The notes under the pieces are model-generated. The model saw only the letters and a program-made list of their open reading frames with translations. It was not told the DNA's origin and did not search any database. From contig JABDJW010000268.1 in assembly GCA_013002375.1 (NCBI GenBank), positions 1 to 15,090 of the forward strand: a stretch of DNA of 15,090 nucleotides, given 5' to 3'. Below, one piece after another: positions 1 to 14,179 of the stretch. The stretch's first letter is position 1; each line of letters opens with the position of its first letter. Both the position numbers and the translations under genes were made by a program. The DNA is from Acidimicrobiales bacterium. Lineage in GTDB: Bacteria > Actinomycetota > Acidimicrobiia > Acidimicrobiales > SHLQ01.

Positions 1-1076
1 GCGCAGGCATGGGTGTCGCCGGCGGCGACGGCGGCCACACCGCTCAGCGTGCCCGAGCCTCCGGGGCCCACGACAGGCACCGGGAACATCGAATCCGCCT
101 TCGTATTGTCTCCGAGCTGGCCATCGGCGTTGTCCCCCCAGCACCACGCGCCACCAATGGCATCCGATGCGCAGTTGAAGCTGTCGCCCGACCCGATTCC
201 GGTGATACCGGTGAGACGCCCGATCCCGCCCGGCCCGACAACTTCGACCGGTGTCAGACGATCAACTGTGGTGTTGTCACCCAGCTGGCCCTTGTTGTTC
301 TCGCCCCAGCACCAGACGAATCCTTCGGTGCGGGCGAGGCAGGCATGGGTCAACCCGCCGTCCACATCGATGATCGACTTCCATTGTTCGACCGCGAAGG
401 AGCTGTTTGCGGTCGAGGTCGGATCACCGAAAGCGGCGTCGGAATCGCTGACGGGGTTCGCCACGGTGGCGACGATCGCCAGACCGAGAACCACCGCGCC
501 GATCGGCATCGCGGCGACACGAGCGTTCGGGCTCGCGGCCGGGAGATCGCGACGCGCTCGCCATTGGTTGTGCAGGTCCTGGAGCATCCACCGTGAGGCC
601 AGCGCCGCGACGACGAGCGCGGCTGCTGCGGCCAGGAGCCGCAGCACGTCCCCTCGCTCGAGCCACACGAGCGGTGTGCCGATCACCGGAACGACGACCT
701 TGCCGATCCCGCGGATCGCCTCCGGCTGAACCGGGGTGGAGTCGACGCGGGGGTTGGCGTCGCCCTGGGTGACGTACGCCCCCGAAGGATTCCGGCTCAC
801 CACTCGATGGGTGACCAGACCGGCACCCGAAGGGTTCTCGAAGACGATGATCGTGCCGGGATCGAGCTGCTGACGCTCGTCGGGAGACGACGTGATCAAG
901 ACATCGCCGACCGACACCGACGGGGCCATCGACCCGGATGTCACCGCGACCGAATCCCAGCCCCGGGCGAGAGGCAGCACCGTCACCCACAGCACGAGCC
1001 ACGTGAGCGCGGCCAGCACCGTCAGGCTCACCAGCCCGATGATGTATCGCGAGACTTCTATGGTTCGGGCGGTCAT
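1..1076 (-). CDS. Archaeal/SipW-type signal peptidase I (S26B) continuing in frame into an RCC1/BLIP-II-like beta-propeller repeat domain; partial, C-terminus beyond the left window edge
   Basis: Minus-strand ATG at 1076 in a frame with no stop down to position 1. The ORF track omits it only because it has no in-window stop. My translation begins MTARTIEVSRYIIGLVSLTVLAALTWLVLWVTV (TM1), then ...VTSGSMAPSVSVGDVLI (SipW catalytic Ser box, SGSMxP), then ...GLVTHRVV (catalytic His about 40 residues later, as in B. subtilis SipW), then a C-terminal hydrophobic anchor LRLLAAAAALVVAALA at about residue 165. From about residue 189 there is an in-frame Met (507-509) followed by a second signal-peptide-like segment. 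After that come three visible RCC1-type blades: GGLTHACLARTEGFVWCWGENNKGQLGDNT, GDSFNCASDAIGGAWCWGDNADGQLGDNT and GDTHACA. Confidence 0.7.
   Translation of the reverse strand, partial: MTARTIEVSRYIIGLVSLTVLAALTWLVLWVTVLPLARGWDSVAVTSGSMAPSVSVGDVLITSSPDERQQLDPGTIIVFENPSGAGLVTHRVVSRNPSGAYVTQGDANPRVDSTPVQPEAIRGIGKVVVPVIGTPLVWLERGDVLRLLAAAAALVVAALASRWMLQDLHNQWRARRDLPAASPNARVAAMPIGAVVLGLAIVATVANPVSDSDAAFGDPTSTANSSFAVEQWKSIIDVDGGLTHACLARTEGFVWCWGENNKGQLGDNTTVDRLTPVEVVGPGGIGRLTGITGIGSGDSFNCASDAIGGAWCWGDNADGQLGDNTKADSMFPVPVVGPGGSGTLSGVAAVAAGDTHAC
423..509 (-). other. Internal SipW-cognate-like signal peptide at the junction of the peptidase and RCC1 parts (n-region RARRD, h-region MPIGAVVLGLAIVATVA, c-region NPVSDSDAAFGD)
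   Basis: Translated minus strand reads ...HNQWRARRDLPAASPNARVAAMPIGAVVLGLAIVATVANPVSDSDAAFGDPTSTANSSF. The AAFGD-PTST-xx-SF stretch closely mirrors AAFTD-STST-xx-SF in the neighbouring TasA-like gene and resembles the TasA-class AAF(N/T)D motif. The Met at 507-509 falls exactly where a normal ~190-aa SipW would end. Confidence 0.5.
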
Positions 1077-1098: not shown

Positions 1099-1722
1099 CT
1101 AGGACTGGACTTCCCAGGCAAACGTGAGCGCAGTGACCGACTCACCTTGCTCGGAGTCGGGCGCCGCCGCGTCGAGGCTGACGGTCACGCGGTAGGTCTT
1201 CGTATCCGGCGTCGCGGCGGGATCCCACAATCCGGCTCCCGTGGCGTAGTCGGTGTGCGTGGTGTCGAAGTCGGCGAGCGTCCCGCCCATCTCGATGATG
1301 CTGTCGGGTACGAACCCCGCACAGTTCCCGAACGACCCGCCGTTACCTTCTTCGATGGTGAGGTTGAGGTAGGTGCCGAGGTCGCCGGAGTCGGTGTAAC
1401 CGCCCGAATACAGCTTCACAGCCGCCGGGTCGGCCACCGTGCCTTGGTACGTCACGAGAATGCAGTCGCTGACCGCCTGACCGGGAACCAGATCCGGCAC
1501 GGAGAACATCACCGCGTCCAGGTCGTCGTCGATCAGATCGACCGTTCCGGCCGTGAAGGAGTTGCCCGACGTCGACGTCGAATCAGTGAACGCCGCAATC
1601 GAGCTGGTGACGACCACCGCGCTCACACCCACCAAAGAGGCCATCGCCGCGAGTGCGAGCACGACCATCTTGGCCGTGCCGCCGCCCGGCGTTCCCGTCG
1701 AAACACCTTGTCCTGCCATCAT
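1099..1722 (-). CDS. Small secreted protein with a SipW-cognate (TasA/camelysin-class) signal peptide, the putative substrate of the adjacent SipW
   Basis: 207-aa ORF. N-terminus MMAGQGVSTGTPGGGTAKMVVLALAAMASLVGVSAVVVTSSIAAFTDSTSTSGNSF has a hydrophobic h-region followed by the AAF(T/N)D signature of SipW-dependent proteins such as TasA. It sits 22 nt upstream of the sipW-type gene on the same strand. AGGGA lies 5-9 nt before the ATG. GC3 is high. Confidence 0.65.
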   Translation of the reverse strand: MMAGQGVSTGTPGGGTAKMVVLALAAMASLVGVSAVVVTSSIAAFTDSTSTSGNSFTAGTVDLIDDDLDAVMFSVPDLVPGQAVSDCILVTYQGTVADPAAVKLYSGGYTDSGDLGTYLNLTIEEGNGGSFGNCAGFVPDSIIEMGGTLADFDTTHTDYATGAGLWDPAATPDTKTYRVTVSLDAAAPDSEQGESVTALTFAWEVQS

Positions 1723-1920: not shown

Positions 1921-3162
1921 TCAGGCCCCGGTCAGCAGTCGGTGGGCCGCAGCAGCAGCCTCGGCGCCCGACCGAAGAGCGCCATTGATCGATGCGTCGT
2001 GGCGATGGTCGCCGGCGACGATCGCACCCGAGGGCGCTGTGGTGATACCGAGCGCGGTCTGGCCCGGCGGCTGGCGCGGCTGGGCCCGATCGACGCGGTC
2101 GACCCGCAAGAGATCCCACCCCTCGACCATCGGGCCGTACCAGTCTCGGAGCTGGGCGCGGAGTTGATCAGCGATGTCGGGGGCCGAGCGAGCCGGCGTC
2201 GCGACCGACGACGCCACGACGAGCTGACGGCCCGTCGGCGCATACATCGGACTGACCGCCGCCAGATTGGCCACCGAGTTCACCGGACCGGATCCGGTGC
2301 TGTTCAGCACGAGGGTCGACCCGATGGGCACCGGTTGGTTCGACGAGAACCAACAGCTGGTCACGCCGTTCCACCCTCGATCGTCGACACCGGCCAGCTC
2401 GGCGGCCTCGGTCATGCCGGTGGCCACGATGACGGCGCCGGCGTCGACCCGTTCGCCACCGGCCAGCAGGATTCCGTTGCCGTCGACCTTGGCGACCGGT
2501 GTCTGCAGGTGGACCGTGTCGTCGGGCAACCGAGCCAGCAGGTGTTCGCCGATCTGGCCCATCCCGCCGGCGGGAACCACGGCATCGCCGATGGCCAACA
2601 TCCGGAACACGAAGTCGAGCACTCGGCTGGATCCCGACAAGGTGGGATCGAGGGTGATGCCGGCAAACAACGGCTGGAAGAAGCGCTCGATCATGGTCGA
2701 CGAGAAGCCCAGGTCCTCGAGTCGGGCCTGGGCCGTCTGCTCCGGCGCCGACCAGAGTTGGGCGAGGGATTGCCTGGTGACCCGGCGGCGATACCGCAGG
2801 ATGCGCAGCTTGTCGGTCAACGAGCCGACCGGCGCCCGAACGGTGGGCACCAGGTCGGCTGGACGCCGAAAGGGGTCGCCGACGCGGTGGAACGACCCAT
2901 CGATACGCAGCTCGACTCCGGGCTGAAACGGCCGCAGATCGAGGACGTCGTACCGCAACAGCTGCTGAGCCTCCGGGTAGGCATCGAGCAGGATCTGGAA
3001 GCCTCGATCGAGCCGGTAGCCGTCGACGACATCGGTCCGCACTCGCCCACCGGGCCCGTCGGCCCGCTCGAACACGACGACGGATCGACCGGCTTCGCAA
3101 AGCCGAATCGCGGCGGCGAGGCCGGCCAGGCCGGCACCGACGATGGCGACGTCGGCGGTCAT
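1921..3162 (-). CDS. FAD-dependent oxidoreductase of the flavin amine oxidase / protoporphyrinogen-phytoene desaturase-like family
   Basis: True start is probably the ATG at 3162 (MTADVAIVGAGLAGLAAAIRLCEAGRSVVVFERADGPGGR = Rossmann GxGxxG ... E ... GGR dinucleotide fold). The C-terminal ...AIVAGDHRHDASINGALRSGAEAA motif is typical of this family. The ATG overlaps the upstream esterase TGA as ATGA (3159-3162). The listed 522-aa form adds an Arg-rich 5' extension that looks spurious. Confidence 0.75.
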   Translation of the reverse strand: MTADVAIVGAGLAGLAAAIRLCEAGRSVVVFERADGPGGRVRTDVVDGYRLDRGFQILLDAYPEAQQLLRYDVLDLRPFQPGVELRIDGSFHRVGDPFRRPADLVPTVRAPVGSLTDKLRILRYRRRVTRQSLAQLWSAPEQTAQARLEDLGFSSTMIERFFQPLFAGITLDPTLSGSSRVLDFVFRMLAIGDAVVPAGGMGQIGEHLLARLPDDTVHLQTPVAKVDGNGILLAGGERVDAGAVIVATGMTEAAELAGVDDRGWNGVTSCWFSSNQPVPIGSTLVLNSTGSGPVNSVANLAAVSPMYAPTGRQLVVASSVATPARSAPDIADQLRAQLRDWYGPMVEGWDLLRVDRVDRAQPRQPPGQTALGITTAPSGAIVAGDHRHDASINGALRSGAEAAAAAHRLLTGA

Positions 3163-4652
3163 CGCACGCCCGACCAACAATCGATGGTGTCGATCACCGG
3201 GTCGGGGCGCCATGTGGTCGTCGTGTCGAAATCGATCAGCGAACGTTGCTCGGGGCTGTAGGCCAGCCATTCGGGTCCGCCATCGAAGCCGGGCCGGCCG
3301 TGGCGCAGGAACGAGATCCACGTCGCATGCATGATGTCGGCGACGGGCTGCGGATCGGGGCCCGGGCCGATGAAGAGGTCGACGCCCGGCTGATGGAGGT
3401 TGTCGAACACGAAGGGAATCTCCAGGGCATGGCATGCGCCGAGCGCGCCCTCGAAGGCCCGTGATTGCCAGCTGAACCGGTACATCCAAGTATCGGCGCC
3501 GTGCGCGGCTCGAGCGTCGGCCATGCGGACCGCCGGCACGCCGAACATGGCGTCACCACCGATCGCCACCGCCAGGTCGCCGGCCGACGTGGCCCGACCG
3601 GCCTCCCGGTACCGGTCGATCGCGGCGGCCGGATCGGGATGGGTGCGAGCCACGAACCCTTCGAGTCGATCGTCGGTGGTCTGCTGGGTGCCCCACAGAC
3701 GGGTCTCGTCGGCATTGGTGCCCATCAGCACCGGTTTGTCGCAACCGACGCCGGCCGCGATAGCGTCGATCGGCCGGCGCGGTAGGACGACGCCATCGAC
3801 CACCGGGTAGAACGGCGAGTTCATCAAGCCCAGCTCGGCCGGGGAACGGCCGTAGAGCTCCTCCTGGGCGTCGAGCAGCCGCTCGGCGCCGAGCGACCGC
3901 AGGCCCTCGACCGAGCCGGACGCCACGCCGGCGGCCTCGAACAACCAGCGGGCCACCCCTTGGCCTTGTTCGGCGTCGTGGACGGCGTGCGCGGCCCCGC
4001 TCTGGAGGATCGCCTGGGCGAAAAGGGGCTGGGCGGCCGGCAGCGAGAGCAACGTACCGACGCTGAACGCCCCGGCCGATTCGCCGGCGATCGTGACCCG
4101 CTCGGGATCTCCCCCAAAGCTCGCGATGTTGTCCTGCACCCACTGGAGCGCGGCCAGCTGATCCAGGATGCCCACCACCCCGGAGCCGGCCAGCTCATCG
4201 TCGAGATGGTCGAGGTAGGTGAACCCGAAGGCGCCCAGCCGATAGTTGATCGACACCACGACGACGTCGCCCTGCTCGGCGAAACGGGCGCCGTTGTACC
4301 AGGGGATCGCGCCCATGCCGTGGCGGAAGTCGCCGCCATGGATCCACACCATGACCGGCCGAGCGCCATCGACCGCCGGCGTCTGCACGTTGAGCGAGAG
4401 GCACTCGGCTTCATCCCAGGGCAGAGCAGCGGCGCTGGTGAGCCCGTCGCCGGGGCGCTGAGGCGCCCCCTTGGTGAAGCGGGTGGCGTCGCGGGGCTCG
4501 GACCAGGCTTCGACCGGTTGCGGCGGCCCAAACCGGTTGTGGCCGACGGGAGGGGCAGCATATGGAATGCCGGCGAACGAGAGCACGCCGTCGCGTTCGC
4601 GCCCGAAAACCGGACCGGACGTTGTGGTTGCGACTGGACTCGAGTTCACCAT
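3159..4652 (-). CDS. Carboxylesterase/lipase type B family (para-nitrobenzyl-esterase-like)
   Basis: Nucleophile elbow VTIAGESAGAFSV (G-E-S-A-G). N-terminus MVNSSPVATTTSGPVFGRE...FAGIPYAAPPVG matches the family's N-terminal block. I prefer the ATG at 4652 over the listed GTG at 4742, which would overlap the upstream gene. The stop TGA overlaps the next ATG. Confidence 0.8.
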   Translation of the reverse strand: MVNSSPVATTTSGPVFGRERDGVLSFAGIPYAAPPVGHNRFGPPQPVEAWSEPRDATRFTKGAPQRPGDGLTSAAALPWDEAECLSLNVQTPAVDGARPVMVWIHGGDFRHGMGAIPWYNGARFAEQGDVVVVSINYRLGAFGFTYLDHLDDELAGSGVVGILDQLAALQWVQDNIASFGGDPERVTIAGESAGAFSVGTLLSLPAAQPLFAQAILQSGAAHAVHDAEQGQGVARWLFEAAGVASGSVEGLRSLGAERLLDAQEELYGRSPAELGLMNSPFYPVVDGVVLPRRPIDAIAAGVGCDKPVLMGTNADETRLWGTQQTTDDRLEGFVARTHPDPAAAIDRYREAGRATSAGDLAVAIGGDAMFGVPAVRMADARAAHGADTWMYRFSWQSRAFEGALGACHALEIPFVFDNLHQPGVDLFIGPGPDPQPVADIMHATWISFLRHGRPGFDGGPEWLAYSPEQRSLIDFDTTTTWRPDPVIDTIDCWSGVR

Positions 4653-4663
4653 GCCCGCGAACG

Positions 4664-5650
4664 CTAGCCGAGCGCGGGCAGAACCGAGTCGGCGTACAAC
4701 TGGAGGCTCCTCCAGCCCTCGTCGATCGGCATGCCCCCGCACAGCGGGTGGTGGGTCATGAAGGCGAAGTCACCGGCGCCCTGCAGCTCGTCGATCGCCT
4801 CCTGCGGCGACAGCACCCGATAGATGCCCTCCTCGCGGAGCTCGGCCGGATTGCCGGCCGCCGATTTCACGGCTGATTTGTTCGACGGTGGTTGCCACGC
4901 GGCATAGACCGAAGCCTCGTTGAAGAAATACTGGCCGAGTTCGGCCCAGGCTTGATCCGGGTCTTCGTGAATGAAGTTCAGGGTGGTGTTGGGTGCCGGC
5001 ATGATGCACAGGCCGGTCTTGCCGTTGGCGGCCAGCTCATCGTTGTAGAGGGCTTCGAGATCCGGCAGGTGCGCGGCGGGGAAGAACGGCAACCCGAGTC
5101 GCGCCGCCCGCCTGGCCGATGCCGGGCTGGTGCCGCCGATCAGGAGCTGAGGATGCGGTTTGGAGATCGGGACCGGCGTGACCCGTACCGTTTCACCCTT
5201 GTAGTCGAACGGCTCGCCGGTCCACGCGGCCAACATCACGTCGAGCGCTTCGTCGAGCAGCTTGCCCCGACGCTTCCATTCGCGGTCGAGCAAGTGGTAC
5301 TCCGAAGGTCGGTACCCCAGCCCGGTGATGATCGACAACCGACCACCGCCCGAGAGCAGATCGGCCACCGCGATGTCTTCGGCCAGACGAACCGGATGGT
5401 GTTGCGGCACCAGCAGCGCCGAGATGCTGACGCCGATCCTCTTGGTCCGGGCGAACACCATGCAGGCCATGGCCAAGGGCGAGCAGCTCCAACCGTTCTC
5501 CGCGCCGTGGTGTTCCTCGAGGGTGATGGTCGAGAAGCCGTGTTGCTCGGCGAACTCGGCCATGTCGACAAACGCCTGATAGCGCGCCGACATCTCGATC
5601 GGCTCGAGGCCCGGCTGAATCATGTTGAACCGGGCGATGGACATCACCAT
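4664..5650 (-). CDS. LLM-class (luciferase-like monooxygenase) flavin-dependent oxidoreductase
   Basis: 328 aa with typical LLM blocks: ...TITLEEHHGAENGW..., ...LLVPQHHPVRLAEDIAVADLLSGGRLSIITGLGYRPSEY..., ...KPHPQLLIGGTSPASARRAARLGLPF. Strong SD AAGGGGG sits 8 nt before the ATG at 5650. Stop lies 11 nt before the esterase start. Confidence 0.8.
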   Translation of the reverse strand: MVMSIARFNMIQPGLEPIEMSARYQAFVDMAEFAEQHGFSTITLEEHHGAENGWSCSPLAMACMVFARTKRIGVSISALLVPQHHPVRLAEDIAVADLLSGGGRLSIITGLGYRPSEYHLLDREWKRRGKLLDEALDVMLAAWTGEPFDYKGETVRVTPVPISKPHPQLLIGGTSPASARRAARLGLPFFPAAHLPDLEALYNDELAANGKTGLCIMPAPNTTLNFIHEDPDQAWAELGQYFFNEASVYAAWQPPSNKSAVKSAAGNPAELREEGIYRVLSPQEAIDELQGAGDFAFMTHHPLCGGMPIDEGWRSLQLYADSVLPALG

Positions 5651-5750
5651 TGGCTGACCCCCTTGGTCGGGGCCCAGTTTCTGGCACGGCGACGGACCGG
5701 TGCCAGCTCAACGCCGTGAAATCTCGGCGCGGGTGGTGGCTCCGAAGCCG

Positions 5751-6953
5751 CTAGCGCTTGGTACCGGAGCAGACGATGCTGGCGTTTTCGCCCAGCGCGG
5801 TCTCGGCGGCGATGACCGCTCCGTCGACCTCGACCGCACAGCTCAATTCTCCGGTGCCCACTCGCCGCACGACCGCGACGTTGATTTCCTGTTCACCCTC
5901 GAAGACATCGATCGTGGTGCGATACGGCAGCCACACGTCGACCGACAGCGGCACGTTGATGCCATCGTCGATGCTGACCTGGGCCAAGCCCTCACCTTCG
6001 ATGACCACCGAACCCCGCTCGAGCTGACGACCCAGCACCTCGGCCGGTCGATCGCTCGTGGGGACACCATCGGAACCACCGCTGTTGGCGATGGCCAGAC
6101 CGCCGACGAAGAGCGCGGCGATGATCGACGCCGCACCGAGCGCCAGGTTCGTCTGCTGCTCGGGCCGCAGGATCGGCAAGCGACGATCGCTGACCTCGAC
6201 CAGGCCGCGAGCCGAGCGGGCGAAATCACCGTGCATCGAGATCGGCCACACCGTCGAGGAGTCGTACAGTGCGCCGTCGAACTTCACCGCCGTGACGGTC
6301 GCCGAACCGAGGTCGGCACCGCGAAGGTCGGCCTTGCGCATATCGGCGCCGGTCAGGTCGGCATCCCCGAAGCGGGCGTCGCGGAGATCGGCTTCTTCGA
6401 AATGCGCCTCTTGCAGGTTTGCTTTGAAGAAGCGCGCGCCCCGGAAGTCAGCTCGAAAGCCGTGCAGATCGAAGCCGTCGATGTTGTCGAAGCGAGCATC
6501 GCGGGCGTCGGATCGGGTCAAGACCGCGTCGGCCATGACCGTGCCGGTGAAATCGGCCTTGCGAAGGTTGGCGTGAGCCAATCGGATCGAGTTCATCTGC
6601 CGGTTGCGCAGGTAGGAACCGTCGAGGTTGGCCGCGGAGAAGTCGCAGGAGTCGAGCGGATTGCCGGTGTTGATCTGCATCTGCAGATCGCGGCGGCGAC
6701 GGGAACTCTCGCCGATGATGAACCCCCAGGTCACGATGGCACCCAACACACCGGCGCCGACCAGGACCAGACCGGCCTGACGGCTGGTCTCCGACGGCGC
6801 CCGGTCGACGACGACCGCGCCGACGCCGACGATGAGCCCGATGGCCAGAATCAAGGGGACCCATACGGCTCGCCGAATGGTGTCTCGCGCGGCCGCCAGG
6901 GACTGCATCAATCGTCCGGCCAGGGCCGCGGTTTGCTTCCGGAACTTCTTCAT
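5751..6953 (-). CDS. Membrane-anchored pentapeptide-repeat protein with three TM helices and a ~110-aa C-terminal extracytoplasmic domain of unknown type
   Basis: Tandem A(D/N)LxxA pentapeptide repeats: ANLRKADFTGTVMADAVLTRSDARDARFDNIDGFDLHGFRADFRGARFFKANLQEAHFEEADLRDARFGDADLTGADMRKADLRGADLGSA. Hydrophobic helices are AVWVPLILAIGLIVGVGAVVV, AGLVLVGAGVLGAIVTWGFIIG and LALGAASIIAALFVGGLAIA. Start set at the ATG at 6953 (MKKFRKQ...). The listed GTG at 7004 would overlap the divergent neighbour. The antisense 439-aa ORF is D/R/G-rich junk. Confidence 0.65.
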   Translation of the reverse strand: MKKFRKQTAALAGRLMQSLAAARDTIRRAVWVPLILAIGLIVGVGAVVVDRAPSETSRQAGLVLVGAGVLGAIVTWGFIIGESSRRRRDLQMQINTGNPLDSCDFSAANLDGSYLRNRQMNSIRLAHANLRKADFTGTVMADAVLTRSDARDARFDNIDGFDLHGFRADFRGARFFKANLQEAHFEEADLRDARFGDADLTGADMRKADLRGADLGSATVTAVKFDGALYDSSTVWPISMHGDFARSARGLVEVSDRRLPILRPEQQTNLALGAASIIAALFVGGLAIANSGGSDGVPTSDRPAEVLGRQLERGSVVIEGEGLAQVSIDDGINVPLSVDVWLPYRTTIDVFEGEQEINVAVVRRVGTGELSCAVEVDGAVIAAETALGENASIVCSGTKR

Positions 6954-7731: not shown

Positions 7732-8538
7732 CTATTCGCGGGCGCGGCTCACCGCCGCGGTGACGGCCCGTCGCACCGGGCCGGGCAGGCTGGCGTTCAC
7801 GCTTCGAAGCACCCGGTTCCGTTTGCCGGAAACCACGATGGCCTTGCCTGCCTCGGCGCCGACCAGACCCGCTTCTGCGACCTGCTCGGCCGTTTGCCAG
7901 ATCCAGTCGGGAACGTCGTTGATGTCGGAGCCGGCGCGCTCCTGGAACTCGGTGCGGGTCATGCCCGGCATCAGACAGGAGACGACGACACCGGAATCGG
8001 CCAGATCGACCGCAAGGGACTGCGAAAAGCTGTTCACGAAGGCCTTGGTGGCGTTGTAGGTCGCCGAGCCCGGTCCGACGAGTTCGGCCGCCACCGACGA
8101 CACGTTCAAGACGGTGCCGCCGCCACGGTCGCGCATCGCCTGGGCCGCGGCATGGCACAGGCGATGCAGGGCGACGACGTTCACGGCGACGACGGTGGCC
8201 TCGCCCGCGTAGTCGAGATCGGCAAACGGACCGTCGAACCCGATTCCCGCGTTGTTGACCAGCAGGTCGATCGGACGCTCGACGGCCGACACTCGGGCCG
8301 CGACACGGTCGAGGTCGGCAGGGTCGGCCAGGTCGGCCACCAGCACCTCGACCTGCACATCGTGGGCGGTCATGACGTCGACCGCCAGGGCATCAAGTCG
8401 TTCTTGATCCCGCGCCACGACCACCAGGTGCGTGGAGCGCTCGGCCAGCTGCTGGGCCATGGCCAGCCCGATACCCGAGGACGCCCCGGTGACGAGCGCC
8501 CGAGTCCATGTCGACTTCGGATGCAGCGTTGCGGTCAT
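7732..8538 (-). CDS. SDR-family short-chain dehydrogenase/reductase
   Basis: TGASSGIGLAMA (TGxxxGxG), NNAG, and a catalytic S...YNATK (YxxxK). 268 aa. Convergent with the nucleosidase gene, with a 2-nt gap between stops. Confidence 0.85.
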   Translation of the reverse strand: MTATLHPKSTWTRALVTGASSGIGLAMAQQLAERSTHLVVVARDQERLDALAVDVMTAHDVQVEVLVADLADPADLDRVAARVSAVERPIDLLVNNAGIGFDGPFADLDYAGEATVVAVNVVALHRLCHAAAQAMRDRGGGTVLNVSSVAAELVGPGSATYNATKAFVNSFSQSLAVDLADSGVVVSCLMPGMTRTEFQERAGSDINDVPDWIWQTAEQVAEAGLVGAEAGKAIVVSGKRNRVLRSVNASLPGPVRRAVTAAVSRARE

Positions 8539-9655: not shown

Positions 9656-10486
9656 CTAGGTCCGCTTGCGCACCATCGCCGACTGCGAGCCGATGGCGAG
9701 CAGGACGCCGTCGGGCGTGAACATGCGCACCATGCCGTGACCGAAGCCGGTCACGACCCCTTCGACCTGAATGTCGAGCAGGAACCATTCGGTCGGCTGG
9801 ACGTTCAGCACCCGGATCGTGTTGTCGAGGCTGTTGCTGGCCGTCGGGGCATCGAGCGCGACCGAAATCGCCATCGGAACGAAATCACCCAGCACCGCCA
9901 GCGCCGCAGCACTGCCATCGGTGAGCCCGGGCACCCGGATCCACATGCCCACCCGGCCCGGGCCGATCAGCCCCGGCCGGCGCTCGAGCCCCGCCGCATC
10001 GTTGGCCGCCAGCTCGGCTGATTCGGCCTGGAGCAACGCCATCCGCGACTCGAAGCGGCTACTGATGGTGCCGGGCGTGGTGGTGGCGGCCCGAAGCGGG
10101 CACTCCTCGGGCGGTCGCACCGGCGGCATCACCGGATGCAGGTAGGTGTCGGGGTAGTCCCGCCGCCCGAGCGCGGCGTTCACGGTGATGATCTCGCTGC
10201 CCCCGATGTGGCCGGTGGCCCGGGCCTGGGTCGTGGTGTTGCCCTCCGCGGCCAGGACGACGTCGATGTCGAGCACCGAACCTTCGGGTGCGAAGCTCAG
10301 GTAGTGGGCGGTGGCCCACACCACCGGCCGGCCCGCGGTGCCCTCCAACGCAACGATGGCCGCACCCAGTGCCGCACCGCCGAACAACGTGCCGTATCCC
10401 GAACACACGCCGAGATCGATCGGCAGCACCCAGCGGAACGGATTGTGGGTGGGCTCGACGCCGAGCCAGGTCCGACTGTCGCTCAC
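9656..10486 (-). CDS. Acyl-CoA thioesterase II (TesB-like, double hot-dog)
   Basis: Coding portion of the listed 521-aa ORF. Its Arg-rich N-terminal half is a different frame of the hydrolase gene. Start proposed at the GTG at 10486, overlapping the hydrolase TGA as GTGA. That gives 276 aa, matching TesB size. The body sequence (...NPFRWVLPIDLGVCSGYGTLFGGAALGAAI...) resembles the TesB family by recall. Confidence 0.55.
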   Translation of the reverse strand: MSDSRTWLGVEPTHNPFRWVLPIDLGVCSGYGTLFGGAALGAAIVALEGTAGRPVVWATAHYLSFAPEGSVLDIDVVLAAEGNTTTQARATGHIGGSEIITVNAALGRRDYPDTYLHPVMPPVRPPEECPLRAATTTPGTISSRFESRMALLQAESAELAANDAAGLERRPGLIGPGRVGMWIRVPGLTDGSAAALAVLGDFVPMAISVALDAPTASNSLDNTIRVLNVQPTEWFLLDIQVEGVVTGFGHGMVRMFTPDGVLLAIGSQSAMVRKRT

Positions 10487-11334
10487 CGCGGAAGGGCCTT
10501 TCGAATGCTCGCGGCGATCCGGGCCGGGTCTTGCATCGGCCCGAAATGGTTGAGGTCGGCCATCGACACGTAGAAGCCGTTGAGCAGGTGTTCGGCCACA
10601 GTCGGGGCGATCATCGACGGCGGGCCACCGTCGCCCGACCCGACCACGGTGGTGGGCGTCGCGATGGCACCCAGATTGGCGAAGACCTCGCCGTGTTCGG
10701 CCGAGAAGAAGGCCGCTTCGGTCGCGCCGCGGCACCGCAGCTGCACCGTGCCGTCGTCGAGATCGCCGAAGCCGTGTTCGACGTAGGCCCGCAAGGACGC
10801 CGGATCGGTCGTCGAGAACGGCGGTTTCGCTGCGTAGTTCTCGAACGCTTCGTCGCGACTGGCGAAGATCTCTCGACGGCGGCGGGCCGAATCGGCGAGC
10901 GGATTCGGGGCACCGGCCGGCCGGGCCGCCTCGGCCGGGAAGACGATCGGCTCGAACGCCCACAGGCTGCGAAACCGGCCCGCGACGGCTTGTTCGGCCA
11001 GCATCAGGCCGCACCCACCCATCGACCAACCGACGCCGTCGAGCTGACCCGGCTCCGCGTGCCCGGCTGCGTAGAGATGGTCGACGACCGCACTGACGTC
11101 GTCGCCCACGCCGTCCCACTCGTACGCCAGGTTGTCGGGGGTCCGCGAGACGCCGTGACCGCGGAGGTCGATGGCCCAACAGCGGGCGTCGGCCGCGAGG
11201 GCGTCGGCCACCGGCTGCCACACCCGCCCGTGCATTCCGTTGGCGTGCACCATCAACAGCGCCGGTCCGACCCCGCCGAGATCGTGCAGCGCGACCTCGA
11301 CCCCATCGGTCGACGGAATGTACGCAATGGTCAT
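10483..11334 (-). CDS. Alpha/beta-fold hydrolase
   Basis: MTIAYIPSTDGVEVALHDLGGVGPALLMVHANGMHG...GWSMGG (GxSxG nucleophile elbow). 283 aa, high GC3. Confidence 0.8.
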   Translation of the reverse strand: MTIAYIPSTDGVEVALHDLGGVGPALLMVHANGMHGRVWQPVADALAADARCWAIDLRGHGVSRTPDNLAYEWDGVGDDVSAVVDHLYAAGHAEPGQLDGVGWSMGGCGLMLAEQAVAGRFRSLWAFEPIVFPAEAARPAGAPNPLADSARRRREIFASRDEAFENYAAKPPFSTTDPASLRAYVEHGFGDLDDGTVQLRCRGATEAAFFSAEHGEVFANLGAIATPTTVVGSGDGGPPSMIAPTVAEHLLNGFYVSMADLNHFGPMQDPARIAASIRKALPR

Positions 11335-11365
11335 CAGCGCCCGAGCATAACGGCGCTACTCACCG

Positions 11366-11644
11366 GTGGAAGCGGGCAATACCCTGAGAATCGTGGATGG
11401 ATATGCCGGACCGGCTCGGGCCCTGGTCGACGGACGTGATGTCGGCCAGTGGCGGGTGGAACTCGAGCCATTGGCCGACGACCGCGACGAGCGCTCCTGG
11501 GGCGGCCGAGTCGCGAACAGCGACTACGTCCTGTGGGGCCTGGCCGGTCGGAGACTCGAGCTCGTCCTCCCGAGCGGCCACCGGGCCGCGTGCGTGGTAC
11601 GCCCGACCGGCGAAATCATCGGCCTCGGACCCGCCCCGTTCTGA
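11366..11644 (+). CDS. Hypothetical small protein (92 aa, GTG start), no recognisable family
   Basis: Most third codon positions are G/C, as expected for coding DNA here. It fills the gap between the divergent hydrolase start and hairpin repeat copy A, whose stem begins 10 nt after its TGA. Confidence 0.35.
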   Translation: MEAGNTLRIVDGYAGPARALVDGRDVGQWRVELEPLADDRDERSWGGRVANSDYVLWGLAGRRLELVLPSGHRAACVVRPTGEIIGLGPAPF

Positions 11645-11701
11645 CCCAACCCGATCTCTGATGCCTGAACCGCACTATGTACGGGTAGAGCGTCAGAGAT
11701 C
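11645..11701. repeat. Copy A of a ~56-nt conserved two-tier hairpin repeat
   Basis: cccaacccgATCTCTGATGCctgaaCCGCACtatGTACGGgtagaGCGTCAGAGATcg. An 11-12-bp outer stem with one G-U pair encloses an inner CCGCAC/GTACGG stem. It is about 88 % identical to the copy at 14186-14243. Confidence 0.7.
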
Positions 11702-11715
11702 GCGCTGTAATCCGC

Positions 11716-11744
11716 TTGACCTAGAGCCCATTAACAGCTACTAT
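11716..11744 (+). promoter_or_regulatory. Near-consensus sigma-A-type promoter driving the PadR-NfeD-flotillin operon, predicted leaderless
   Basis: -35 TTGACC (11716-11721), 17-nt spacer, -10 TACTAT (11739-11744). The A of the ATG at 11752 lies 8 nt downstream, so the transcript would begin at or next to the start codon. The region is unusually AT-rich for this window. Confidence 0.55.
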
Positions 11745-11761
11745 TCAACGCATGGTAGCTG
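11735..11761 (+). promoter_or_regulatory. Inverted repeat CAGCTAC-N13-GTAGCTG overlapping the -10 element and start codon; candidate PadR auto-operator
   Basis: Perfect 7-bp arms at 11735-11741 and 11755-11761. PadR regulators classically bind dyads overlapping their own promoters. Confidence 0.4.
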
Positions 11762-12156
11762 GCAATGCACCAGAGCCGAACGCTCTGACCACGTCGAAAC
11801 ATCACGCCCAGATCATGAAGGGCGTGCTCGACATGTGTTTGCTGGCCCGAATCGCCGAGGAACCGAGCTACGGCTACGAACTCGTCACCACCCTCAACGA
11901 CGGCGGTTTGCCCGTCGCCGGCGAGGGCAGCATCTACCCGGTGCTCAAACGTCTGAAACAACAGGGGTTGATCGAGGGTTACCTCGTCGACTCCCCCTCC
12001 GGACCGGCCCGCAAGTACTACCGAGCCACTCCTGAAGGGGATCTGGTGTTGGCCGACTGGAAAACCGATTGGACCAACGTGGCCAACGGTGTGAACGCCA
12101 TGTTGGCCACCCGGAACAAACCGACATCGAAAGGCAAGAAAGGAACCGCACGATGA
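11752..12156 (+). CDS. PadR-family transcriptional regulator
   Basis: ...MKGVLDMCLLARIAEEPSYGYELVTTLNDGG...EGSIYPVLKRLKQQGLIEGYLVDSPSGPARKYYRATPEG is the PadR winged-helix signature. The alternative internal start at 11815 (MKGVLD) removes a 21-aa lower-GC3 N-terminal extension. The stop overlaps the next ATG as ATGA. Confidence 0.8.
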   Translation: MVAGNAPEPNALTTSKHHAQIMKGVLDMCLLARIAEEPSYGYELVTTLNDGGLPVAGEGSIYPVLKRLKQQGLIEGYLVDSPSGPARKYYRATPEGDLVLADWKTDWTNVANGVNAMLATRNKPTSKGKKGTAR

Positions 12157-12797
12157 TCTGGATCTACCTCTCTGCCCTCATCTTCGGTGGCGTGTTCACG
12201 ATCCCGATGGTCCTCGGCGGCCTCGACTTCGATGGCGACGTCGATTTCGACTTCGACGCCGATGGTGATCTCGCCCTCGACACCGGCGATTTCGATGCCG
12301 GCGGCGACATCGACGTCAGTGAAACCAACACCGGCGGCATCGATACCGGCGGTGCGATCAGCGACTTCGTCGGCACGCTGCTGTCGTTCCGCTCGATCGT
12401 CTTCGCCCTCACGTTCTTCGGACTGACCGGCATCGTGTTCAACCTGTTCGATTACAGCGAACCGTTCCCGCTGCTGATGGCGGCCGGCCTTGGCTTCGTG
12501 GCTGCGGCGCTCAACGCGCAACTCTTTAGCATGCTGGGCCGCGGTGAATCCGACAGCCGACTGTCGAACCGCGACATCGAAGGCAAGCCGGCAACCGTCG
12601 TGCTGCCGCTCAACGAAGACCGCAAGGGGCGCATTCGTGTGCCCATCCGTGGCGAGACGATCTACATGGTCGCTCTGCCGTGGGACAAGGCAAACAGGCC
12701 CTATGCCGTCGGCGAGTCCGTCGTCGTCGTAGAAATTGAGGACGGGACTGCATTGGTGGCGCCGCTGCCAGGTCTCGAACTCGGGGAGGAAAGCTAA
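12153..12797 (+). CDS. NfeD-like (YuaF-type) membrane protein: three TM helices, an acidic D/G-rich loop and a C-terminal OB-fold beta-barrel domain
   Basis: True start is ATG 12153 (MIWIYLSALIFGGVFTIPMVLGG), not the upstream ORF start at 12069. TM2 and TM3 are TLLSFRSIVFALTFFGLTGIVF and FPLLMAAGLGFVAAALNAQLF. The C-terminus GKPATVVLPLNEDRKGRIRVPIRGETIYMVALPWDKANRPYAVGESVVVVEIEDGTALV looks like the NfeD short-form beta-barrel. It sits immediately upstream of a flotillin gene, as yuaF-floT does in Bacillus. Confidence 0.7.
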   Translation: MIWIYLSALIFGGVFTIPMVLGGLDFDGDVDFDFDADGDLALDTGDFDAGGDIDVSETNTGGIDTGGAISDFVGTLLSFRSIVFALTFFGLTGIVFNLFDYSEPFPLLMAAGLGFVAAALNAQLFSMLGRGESDSRLSNRDIEGKPATVVLPLNEDRKGRIRVPIRGETIYMVALPWDKANRPYAVGESVVVVEIEDGTALVAPLPGLELGEES

Positions 12798-12799
12798 CC

Positions 12800-14179
12800 A
12801 TGGAAGCAATCTTGATTGTCGCCGTCGTCGTGGCGATCATGTTCGTCGTCGTTCTGACCGCGGTGAAGAGCCTGATCATCATCTGCCCCCCGAACAAGGT
12901 GGCCGTGATCTCTGGTCGCCAAGTGAAGTTGGGCGACGGGTCCAAACGGGGCTACCGCGTCCTGCGCGGCGGCTTCACGGTTCGAATTCCGATGATCGAG
13001 AAGGTCGACTACATGGATCTCAACACGATCCCGATCGATGTCTCGGTATCCAACGCCTACTCGAAAGGTGCGATTCCCCTCGACGTGCAGGGCGTCGCCA
13101 ACATCAAGGTGTCGAGCCGCGATGGCGTTCTGGCCAACTCGGTCGAGCGCTTTCTCGGTCGTCCGCCGGAGTACATCCAGCAGATCGCCAAGGAAAACCT
13201 CGAAGCGAACCTACGCGGTGTGCTCTCGACGCTGACCCCCGAAGAGGTCAACGAGGATCGGCTGAAGTTTGCCCAGACCCTCATCGACGAGGCCGACGAC
13301 GACATTCGTACCCTCGGGCTCGAGCTCGACGTGCTGAAGATTCAGAACGTCACCGACCAGGTCGGCTACCTCGAAGCCGTCGGTCGGCGCCGCACGGCGC
13401 AGGTCATCAAGGAAGCCCGCGAGAGCGAGGCGCTGCAGTCCGCCGAAGCCGAGGAGGCCGAGGCCCAGAGCCGCAAGCGGGCCGAGCTGGCCAAGGTGCA
13501 GTCAAATCTGGCCATCGCCGAGGAGACCAACAAGCTGCGGGTACGGCAAGCCGAACTCGACGCCGAAGCCAACGCCCGGGAGGAAGAGGCTGGGGTGGCC
13601 GGTGAACGAGCCAAGGCCGCCGCGGAACAGCTGCTCGAAGACGAGCGCATCAAGCTCCAGAAACGGCGCCTCGAAGCCAACGTGGTTGCTCCGGCCCGGG
13701 CCAAGCGCGAAGCGCTCGAACTCGAAGCCAAGGGCAACGCGGCCCACATCATCGAGGACGGCAACGCCCAGATCGAAGTGTTCCGCCGGATGAGCAACGA
13801 GTATCGCTCGGCCGGTGCGGCCGCCCAAGAGGTCATGGTCATGCAGATGCTGCCCGACCTGGTGGACCAAATCGTGGGCACGGTCAACAACATGGACATC
13901 GGCAAGGTCACCGTCATCGACAACAGTGGCGGGGCCGGCGGCGGGGCTCTCCCCGGTGTCGCCAGCCAAATGCCCGCCGCGGTCATCGCCATCACCGAGC
14001 AGATCGAGGCGGCCACCGGGGTGAACATCCTGCACGCGCTGTCGAAGCCGTCGGCCATCGACGATGATGAGATCGTCGATGCCCAGGCCAAGATCGCCGC
14101 GGAGGCCTCAAACGATGCCGGCGACGGCGCGAGCGAGCCCAGCTCATCACTACCCCCACCGCCCCCCGCGGCCAACTAG
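12800..14179 (+). CDS. Flotillin-like SPFH/band-7 domain protein (FloT/YuaG-like)
   Basis: N-terminal TM AILIVAVVVAIMFVVVLTAV, then an SPFH block (VISGRQVKLGDGSKRGYRVLRGGFTVRIPMIEKVDYMDLNTIPIDV...QGVANIKV...), a long EA-rich coiled coil (AEAEEAEAQSRKRAELAKVQ...) and a Pro-rich tail. Strong SD GGGGAGGAAAG before the ATG. 459 aa. Confidence 0.85.
   Translation: MEAILIVAVVVAIMFVVVLTAVKSLIIICPPNKVAVISGRQVKLGDGSKRGYRVLRGGFTVRIPMIEKVDYMDLNTIPIDVSVSNAYSKGAIPLDVQGVANIKVSSRDGVLANSVERFLGRPPEYIQQIAKENLEANLRGVLSTLTPEEVNEDRLKFAQTLIDEADDDIRTLGLELDVLKIQNVTDQVGYLEAVGRRRTAQVIKEARESEALQSAEAEEAEAQSRKRAELAKVQSNLAIAEETNKLRVRQAELDAEANAREEEAGVAGERAKAAAEQLLEDERIKLQKRRLEANVVAPARAKREALELEAKGNAAHIIEDGNAQIEVFRRMSNEYRSAGAAAQEVMVMQMLPDLVDQIVGTVNNMDIGKVTVIDNSGGAGGGALPGVASQMPAAVIAITEQIEAATGVNILHALSKPSAIDDDEIVDAQAKIAAEASNDAGDGASEPSSSLPPPPPAAN

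Follow-up and report, generated by a model that had tools for sequence, protein, structure and literature searches.

The first 1,076 nucleotides of the window, which is the entire 15,090-bp contig JABDJW010000268.1 of an Acidimicrobiales metagenome-assembled genome (MAG; GCA_013002375.1), carry on the minus strand a gene for a SipW-like signal peptidase that continues in frame, via an internal signal peptide, into an RCC1-type beta-propeller. It is almost certain that this fusion is real and that the connecting segment is a bona fide signal-peptide-type segment. The reading that fits best overall, and which we hold with moderate confidence, is that the conserved fusion encodes a self-cleaving precursor, the propeller of which would donate a strand to the TasA-like protein encoded by the neighbouring gene.

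Translation of the minus strand from the ATG at position 1076 down to position 3 yields 358 sense codons and no stop codon, and the two remaining minus-strand frames of positions 1-1076 contain stops throughout. The product is identical to the database protein P0001, whose record is entitled 'signal peptidase I, partial'. The G+C content at third codon positions (GC3) is between 0.68 and 0.93 in this frame for each stretch of 40 codons, including the one that spans the junction of peptidase and propeller. Since the GC3 phase is unbroken across the junction, a hidden frameshift in the open reading frame (ORF) is disfavoured. The same architecture could be found in other genomes. P0005 (518 aa, JGI) and P0006 (584 aa, from an Acidimicrobiia MAG) are full-length fusions with 40-41% identity over 96-97% of the query; they stem from unrelated assemblies and keep the order peptidase, linker, hydrophobic segment, motif and RCC1. 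A locus scan, which covered one genome per GTDB species, added RCC1 fusions from L004 (1224 aa), L011, L019 and L026 that are in frame as well, and an additional one, P0286, is encoded by an Actinomycetota MAG. In total, eight independent RCC1 fusions from different projects and assemblers, which share 38-52% identity, align unbroken across the junction. A fusion without a stop codon, as read in the first-pass annotation of this DNA, is thus borne out by the open frame, the continuous GC3 and the recurrence in independent assemblies.

SipW-type enzymes have a first transmembrane (TM) helix with the N-terminus inside, a catalytic domain on the outside and a C-terminal anchor, by which the chain is led back into the cytoplasm. 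Residues 16-153 of the fused ORF match the archaeal-type signal peptidase I family TIGR02228 with 72.9 bits (cutoff 51.85), and the Pfam family Peptidase_S26 matches with E=3.8e-4. The equivalog of Bacillus SipW, NF046067, yields 42.8 bits, which is far under its cutoff of 190; as judged from these profiles, the peptidase is SipW-like in kind and not an orthologue of Bacillus SipW. Ser49 and His90 are 41 residues apart, GDAN is found at residues 105-108, and the general base is a His and not a Lys. The catalytic roles of S49, H90 and the conserved Asp are presumed from family membership, and the membrane orientation of the two anchors is likewise a prediction. The N-terminal part therefore scores as an S26B peptidase, and the earlier description of a complete SipW-like enzyme with TM1, Ser box, a His about 40 residues further on and a C-terminal anchor holds, with TIGR02228 above cutoff and the His at +41. 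TM2 ends in SRWML, a variant of the family tail SRWALLxRF/YDPW. This tail, W-x-S-R-W-A-L-L-x-R-F/Y-D-P-W, directly follows TM2 (582-600 in the window) and is present in fused as well as stand-alone actinobacterial members. The C-terminal tail of B. subtilis SipW is reported to have a second role, which is independent of the peptidase activity.

The fused ORF has three hydrophobic segments according to hydropathy (residues 10-39, 141-165 and 184-210), the third of which is the strongest. The basic linker in front of it holds three Arg residues, and this third segment is followed by a predicted scissile bond, A214|A215, between nucleotides 435 and 434. The residues around this bond, S at P3, A at P1, A at P1' and F at P2', fit the pattern of the family described below. 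The fused ORF shows the tripartite n-h-c layout and the T-x-N-x-x-N-x-F tail that are also seen in the neighbouring free substrates. The c-region had been called nearly identical to that of the TasA-like neighbour; comparison of IAAFTDSTSTSGNSF (neighbour) and DAAFGDPTSTANSSF (fused ORF) gives 9 identical residues out of 15, which makes the two similar only. A hidden Markov model (HMM) of our own, built from 71 internal signal peptides of homologues, scored the fused ORF with 17.1 bits, the N-termini of four free-standing TasA-like neighbours with 25-28 bits and a hand-entered B. subtilis TasA sequence with 9.1 bits; the best of 300 shuffled controls reached 5.0 bits. The proposal of a signal peptide between peptidase and propeller is therefore upheld as far as the n-h-c anatomy and, by our HMM, the class shared with the neighbour are concerned; it finds no echo in the family profile TIGR04088, as discussed below.

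Residues 231-357 match RCC1 (PF00415) with 65.6 bits (cutoff 21.7), which confirms the earlier assignment of the downstream part, and PF13540 reaches 46.5 bits (cutoff 22). The whole-domain profile PF25390 gives 71.6 bits and remains below its cutoff of 150 because the propeller is truncated in the window. Three or more blades had been counted initially, but the window holds only two full RCC1 repeats, with two WCWG motifs, and part of a third blade. Full propellers are present in the orthologues P0005, P0006 and L004, with five RCC1 repeats in P0005. An RCC1-only partial protein of 622 aa, P0002, is encoded on a 5668-bp Acidimicrobiales contig and is 58% identical to the propeller of the window; it starts with MFPVQVVGAGG, which can be compared with ...MFPVPVVGPGG in the window. 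P0002 would thus lie on a separate contig, from a related genome, and may represent either the missing C-terminal part of the window gene or a paralogue.

The domain layout could be compared with a structural model of an orthologue. The AlphaFold2 model of P0005, calculated from an 83-sequence alignment, has a pLDDT of 82.6 and comprises a TM1 helix (residues 8-47), a catalytic domain with a pLDDT of ~95, a TM2 helix (154-172), a disordered linker (173-203), a third helix (204-221, pLDDT 50-63), residues 224-244 with the motif at a pLDDT below 50, and a confident all-beta propeller. The model supports the predicted layout and the three-helix topology. Together with the hydropathy profile, it agrees with the topology proposed at first, in which the additional signal peptide forms a third TM segment and places the propeller outside, next to the catalytic domain.

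With the peptidase domain as the only query, exhaustive comparison against 1.84 billion cluster representatives resulted in 11,914 matches at E<=1e-3; a word-indexed protein search with residues 1-235 found 18 matches. The best 150 representatives of the 11,914 matches were combined with P0005 and P0006 to a sample of 152 sequences, 86 of which are at least 300 aa long, with the peptidase at the N-terminus in most and at the C-terminus in a few. All 83 sequences of 300-1000 aa match TIGR02228 at E<=0.01. Their cargo comprises DNRLRE/CBM96 (17-18 sequences), FG-GAP (4), RCC1 (3), fn3 (3) and Laminin_G_3 (2) domains, and most of the other extensions have no Pfam domain; the identified types are those typical of extracellular and surface proteins. 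The AAF column could be aligned for 77 of these sequences; in 71 it closely follows a strongly hydrophobic 14-mer, which is usually preceded by several Lys or Arg residues. Among these 71, P3 is S, A or T in 66 and P1 is A or G in 68; 53 have A at P1' and 52 have F at P2' (a further 15 have L, W or Y there). The residues further downstream are also conserved: T at P6' (53), N at P8' (48), N at P11' (44) and F or L at P13' (48). By this residue pattern, the family site combines the -3/-1 rule of signal peptidase I with the Ala-Phe that is typical of the TasA site. As judged from these sequences, the fusion is not singular but belongs to a large family with many kinds of cargo, which is widespread in Acidimicrobiia and other Actinomycetota.

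In the databases, the fused proteins are named 'signal peptidase I' or, wrongly, 'BamB'. P0148 (1455 aa) and P0171 (1959 aa), for instance, consist of a peptidase followed by fn3-like repeats and propellers and carry the JGI name 'outer membrane protein assembly factor BamB', which looks like a misnomer caused by the propeller. Other additions to SipW-like peptidases were observed as well. P0122 (364 aa) has tandem SipW-like peptidase domains, the second of which starts where relatives have the internal signal peptide. In Acidimicrobiales, proteins of ~1000 aa (L017:3905-6853, also L016, L021, L022 and L025) form a second class of fusion, in which a SipW-like peptidase is combined with a multi-TM region, GIGWVL.ALPIIEAA.RFRLTGALVHWM, and with GGDEF and EAL domains, and which lacks the signal-peptide motif; such a fusion would physically tie a fibre-processing peptidase to cyclic di-GMP (c-di-GMP) signalling. 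Fusions of a SipW-like peptidase with a sortase occur in gut MAGs at L040:3971-5290 and L062:840-2174 (Pfam Sortase, E=2e-7 and 5e-11), the latter from an uncultured Lachnospiraceae bacterium.

The fused gene is preceded on the same strand by a gene for a TasA-like protein, the stop codon of which lies 22 nt before the ATG of the fusion. The protein scores 26.1 bits with TIGR04088 (cutoff 19) and, near the threshold, 22.4 bits with the camelysin/TasA family PF12389 (cutoff 22.5). Five out of six of its orthologues match PF12389 at E<=0.1, with a best value of 2.2e-6. Its family comprises more than 120 clusters, many with a precomputed PF12389 match, and is named 'predicted ribosomally synthesized peptide with SipW-like signal peptide' by JGI. 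An AlphaFold model of the neighbour with 50 homologues as input reached a pLDDT of 83.1, and B. subtilis TasA (5OF1_B; E 2.6e-4, probability 1.00) was the sole PDB match at E<=1e-3 in a fold search with this model. A sequence-profile search of the PDB gave nothing meaningful, the best match being the MS2 coat protein with E 0.06. The model points to a TasA-type jelly-roll fold, with a modest TM-score. A TasA-like gene with the same class of signal peptide is found directly upstream of the fusion in the window and, among 13 further fused loci that were scanned, in 11 (L001-L005, L008-L011, L019 and L026), whatever the cargo. At the P0005 and P0006 loci, the TasA-like gene immediately upstream encodes 190-192 aa.

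Comparison of orthologous loci revealed both fused and split states. The closest relatives, from MAGs of Acidimicrobiales, Ilumatobacteraceae, Microthrixaceae and Nitriliruptoraceae, are fused; in the distant relatives, which belong to Bacillota, Archaea and some further Actinomycetota, the enzyme stands alone and is 165-220 aa long. True splits were found at four loci. In L013 (94-1898), the peptidase ORF extends to 579 and the next ORF, of 440 aa, begins at 576, which results in an overlap of 4 nt; the cargo ORF starts with MKTVITVAVVGALLMLLSVIPTVRA|SFTDATSNDGNTF (site VRA|SFTDATSNDGNTF), an N-terminal signal peptide. In L070 (3851-7472) and L073 (3851-6314), the peptidase is followed, with an overlap of 17 nt, by a large protein with an N-terminal signal peptide, which in L070 has 1009 aa and consists of a TasA-like N-terminal domain and Laminin_G domains. 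L068 (3944-7015) encodes the peptidase, a TasA-like protein and the cargo in series. These split loci indicate that the internal signal peptide of the fused genes corresponds to the ordinary N-terminal signal peptide of a translationally coupled downstream gene.

P0004 (452 aa) was considered as a free-standing RCC1 orthologue, that is as a further split state, and rejected, as the peptidase ORF of L003 enters P0004 in another frame. Where this ORF reaches the shared DNA TCACGGTGGATGCT, its phase is off by one base, which fits a 1-nt indel at gcggTTcacgg (~7985-7995); L004, from the same project, has the intact in-frame version. The broken gene (L003:7507-9359, on the same contig as L007) lies on a 1.17-Mb long-read contig, where gene callers report only P0004, and its frame break stems either from an assembly error in a homopolymer or from recent pseudogenisation. 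Two GGDEF-EAL genes (4000-6543 and 11334-13430) and a phage-type integrase gene (9679-11001) flank the L003 module, a hint that it may be mobile or under the control of c-di-GMP.

In B. subtilis, the donor strand of TasA (residues 28-38) directly follows the SipW site and is inserted into the next subunit, and TapA, whose N-terminus resembles this donor strand, nucleates the fibres (PMC9674648). TapA and SipW are both scarce and translationally coupled through overlapping tapA stop and sipW start codons (PMC10151520). TasA has a Phe at P2' and is a poor substrate of LepB from E. coli, hence the use of SipW by B. subtilis (PMC10269814). In the reading that we favour, the window would encode a two-gene module consisting of a TasA-like fibre subunit and, downstream, a peptidase-cargo fusion. 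TM2 would return the chain to the cytoplasm, and the basic loop, the third hydrophobic segment and S-D-A|A-F would take it out again, so that the precursor would span the membrane three times and present its propeller at the outer face, beside the catalytic domain. The peptidase of the same molecule or of a neighbouring copy would then cut A214|A215; the spent signal peptide would remain attached to the enzyme, of which it would form the third TM helix, and the released propeller would have the predicted neo-N-terminal peptide AFGDPTSTANSSFAVEQWK. The new N-terminus, AFGDPTSTANSSF, would be the counterpart of the N-terminal donor strand of TasA and TapA. Because of this match, the propeller would most likely attach to the TasA-like protein by strand donation and act as a low-copy nucleator, tip or adhesin, like TapA of B. 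subtilis. The fusion would fix the ratio of enzyme to minor subunit at 1:1, and the minor subunit would be released where the major subunit is processed. The individual steps are not equally well founded. Cleavage of the internal site is probable, and the peptidase domain of the fusion itself is the somewhat likely agent; that the cut is made strictly in cis is somewhat less likely than not. Strand donation from the cargo to the TasA-like neighbour, for which the B. subtilis fibre serves as the analogy, has about even chances.

Several points weigh against this reading. The close examples all come from MAGs, and the gene in the window is truncated. The match of the neighbour to TasA is modest (TM 0.40/0.43, 13% identity, Pfam score 22.4 vs 22.5). 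In our own HMM, the 17.1 bits of the fused ORF are lower than the 25-28 bits of the free neighbours, and TIGR04088 has no match at E<=1 to the 70-residue internal segment or in P0005, P0006 and P0092. In the P0005 model, the cleavage region is not docked in the active site, although its low confidence makes the model uninformative on docking either way. Cleavage is a prediction from the sequence, and the attachment of the cargo by a donor strand rests on analogy, with a resemblance at the motif level only (AFGDPTSTANSSF of the fused ORF compared with AFTDSTSTSGNSF of the neighbour).

Four other explanations were weighed. That separate peptidase and RCC1 genes were joined artificially by a stop codon or base lost at their boundary was the alternative named by the first-pass annotation. 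The contig indeed belongs to a MAG without available reads, the L003/L007 locus has a 1-nt frame difference between its parts, and other lineages have split arrangements in which the stop and start codons overlap; however, the GC3 phase is continuous, the eight RCC1 fusions are in frame irrespective of project and assembler, 71 further fusions with other cargo have the same layout, the head of the internal signal peptide lacks a conserved Met or start codon, and L004 has the intact counterpart of the frameshifted L003 gene. Loss or mis-sequencing of a stop codon is effectively excluded because the same fusion recurs in independent assemblies with conserved synteny, and the probability left to an artefact is close to nil. 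It is also very unlikely that initiation at an internal start supplies most of the cargo as a protein of its own and that the read-through is incidental. An ATG (Met190, in AAMPIG) is present at the start of the h-region; yet Met190 is not conserved in the orthologues, a Shine-Dalgarno-like sequence upstream of it could not be seen by eye, the product starting there would have no basic n-region, and ribosomes would read through anyway, as there is no upstream stop.

A real fusion that is never cleaved has some chance of being correct, albeit a small one. TM3 would be permanent and the propeller tethered at the membrane surface, where it might anchor the TasA-like fibre via the donor-strand-like segment or serve as a substrate-recruiting or regulatory ectodomain. 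AlphaFold does not bring the motif into the active site, and TapA was described to anchor TasA fibres and to co-localise with the membrane (PMC10151520, PMC9674648). Furthermore, SipW-like peptidases are also fused to non-substrates, namely to GGDEF-EAL and sortase in the loci described above and to DUF5305 (PMC11821415), so that extra domains on such a peptidase need not be cut off. However, the small residues at -3 and -1 are kept (66/71 and 68/71) together with A-F at P1'/P2', as in free and split substrates, and this conservation is hard to explain without selection for cleavage. The site might, alternatively, be cut by another enzyme, the housekeeping signal peptidase I of the LepB type or a second SipW-like paralogue, in which case the fusion would couple only expression and targeting. 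The sequence does not tell which enzyme cuts, and ~15 kb of the genome have been seen; nevertheless, this is quite unlikely, since the TasA site, with its Phe at P2', is cut poorly by E. coli LepB (PMC10269814), the motif is common to the neighbour with its SipW-cognate signal peptide, and peptidase and site adjoin in one molecule at the membrane.

The self-cleaving precursor could be taken one step further, to a device for ordered assembly, which we regard as unlikely. The peptidase would be self-priming, with its first substrate pre-threaded and with a signal peptide that it would retain as a lasting regulatory element: cleavage in cis would free one propeller-headed nucleator, the helix that stays covalently attached would occupy or gate the substrate groove, and the abundant TasA-like subunit would be processed only after a nucleator has been released at that spot. 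If true, this would be an undescribed use of a signal peptidase in many Actinomycetota, with interchangeable cargo heads.

Table 1. Features of the fused gene and of the TasA-like gene upstream of it (window coordinates; residues refer to the respective protein; functional assignments are predictions).
Feature	Position	Strand	Evidence or remarks
Fused ORF: peptidase, linker, internal signal peptide, RCC1 cargo	1..1076	(-)	5' complete, 3' truncated at contig end
TM1, N-terminal anchor of the peptidase, residues 10-39	960..1049	(-)	KD19 maximum 2.29; helix 8-47 in P0005 model
Catalytic domain, archaeal/ER-type (SipW-like, S26B) signal peptidase I, residues 16-153	618..1031	(-)	TIGR02228, Peptidase_S26
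Ser box S-G-S-M, residues 47-50, Ser49 presumed nucleophile	927..938	(-)	S and M invariant in 83/83 long homologues
T-H-R, residues 89-91, His90 presumed S26B-type general base	804..812	(-)	H and R invariant in 83/83
G-D-A-N-x-x-x-D-S box, residues 105-113, conserved Asp	738..764	(-)	G and D invariant; A, N and second D >=90% conserved
TM2, C-terminal anchor of the peptidase, residues 141-165	582..656	(-)	KD19 maximum 1.98
Basic linker, residues 166-183, QDLHNQWRARRDLPAASP, presumably cytoplasmic, putative n-region	528..581	(-)	Sequence; equivalent in P0005 disordered in model
h-region/TM3, residues 184-210, NARVAAMPIGAVVLGLAIVATVANPVS	447..527	(-)	KD19 maximum 2.39; helix 204-221 in P0005 model
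c-region and donor-strand-like motif, residues 212-229, S-D-A|A-F-G-D-P-T-S-T-A-N-S-S-F-A-V	390..443	(-)	Internal-peptide HMM 17.1 bits
RCC1-type beta-propeller cargo, truncated, residues 231-358	3..386	(-)	WCWG at 255 and 311; PF00415, PF13540
TasA/camelysin-fold protein, 207 aa, SipW-class N-terminal signal peptide	1099..1722	(-)	TIGR04088, PF12389, AlphaFold, PDB fold match

The remaining genes of the contig are metabolic and encode an amine oxidase, a carboxylesterase, a luciferase-like oxidoreductase, a pentapeptide-repeat protein and a short-chain dehydrogenase/reductase (SDR); thioesterase, NfeD/SPFH and P450 genes are also present. No further link of these genes to the peptidase-TasA module was seen on the 15,090-bp contig. 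The longest ORFs of the amine oxidase (1921-3489, minus strand) and the carboxylesterase (3159-4742, minus strand) overlap by ~330 nt. The Pfam match of the amine oxidase begins at residue 110, and translation of this gene probably starts far past the first TTG; the overlap is an effect of ORF extension and not a true overlap.

Signal peptidases are usually treated as stand-alone enzymes, which meet their substrates after separate targeting; here, the enzyme and a substrate-type passenger form one polypeptide. If the precursor cleaves itself, it would provide a natural system to study substrate recognition by a signal peptidase in cis and in trans, and a case of a cleaved signal peptide that stays on the enzyme. 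It would also extend donor-strand fibres of the TasA/TapA type to little-studied, mostly uncultured Actinomycetota, with modular fibre tips such as RCC1 propellers and carbohydrate-binding modules, and would explain hundreds of database entries of 300-2000 aa that are named only 'signal peptidase I'. The fusion would surprise a secretion specialist, whereas its functional steps are all ones that we infer. The fused architecture was not known to the author of the first-pass annotation, and no described peptidase-substrate fusion was found in the full-text literature, with most subscription journals outside its coverage; what has changed is that the fusion is no longer a single case, but one of a large family with many kinds of cargo. 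The parts, an S26B peptidase, a SipW-class signal peptide, the TasA fold and RCC1, are all known, and their joining via an internal substrate-type signal peptide appears to be undescribed.

Several known systems share individual traits with the module. BLIP-II of Streptomyces exfoliatus is a secreted seven-bladed RCC1-like propeller and thus, compared by description, another RCC1-like beta-propeller exported by an actinobacterium. It is free-standing with an ordinary signal peptide and is not known to have a peptidase fusion or a TasA-type motif. As a general analogy, self-processing polyproteins and autotransporters also combine a processing or export device and a released passenger in one polypeptide; in contrast to these, the device here is a general-type signal peptidase that would act on a Sec-type signal peptide inside the chain. 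In the split actinobacterial pairs (L013, L068, L070 and L073), a homologous peptidase is likewise followed by a product with the signal-peptide motif and TasA-like genes are nearby, but they consist of two ORFs with an overlap of 4-17 nt and their signal peptide is N-terminal. Haloarchaeal TafD, which has four TM segments and two outer domains, and the peptidase-DUF5305 fusions are likewise dedicated SipW-type enzymes of donor-strand fibres with added parts; these parts, however, have not been described as substrates or with a cleavage motif (PMC11821415), whereas the added part of the window gene starts with a substrate-type signal peptide. The module can also be compared with the tapA-sipW-tasA operon of B. 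subtilis. In both cases, a dedicated archaeal/ER-type peptidase is encoded beside a subunit of the TasA fold, both substrates have the same class of signal peptide, followed by Ala-Phe at P1'/P2' and by residues similar to a donor strand, and expression of the minor substrate is coupled to that of the enzyme. In contrast to the B. subtilis operon, the minor substrate of the window is fused to the C-terminus of the peptidase via an internal signal peptide, the tasA-like gene precedes the peptidase-cargo gene and the host belongs to the Acidimicrobiia instead of the Bacillota; in place of the Ig-like TapA, the cargo is an RCC1 propeller here and DNRLRE/CBM96, FG-GAP or fn3 elsewhere in the family.

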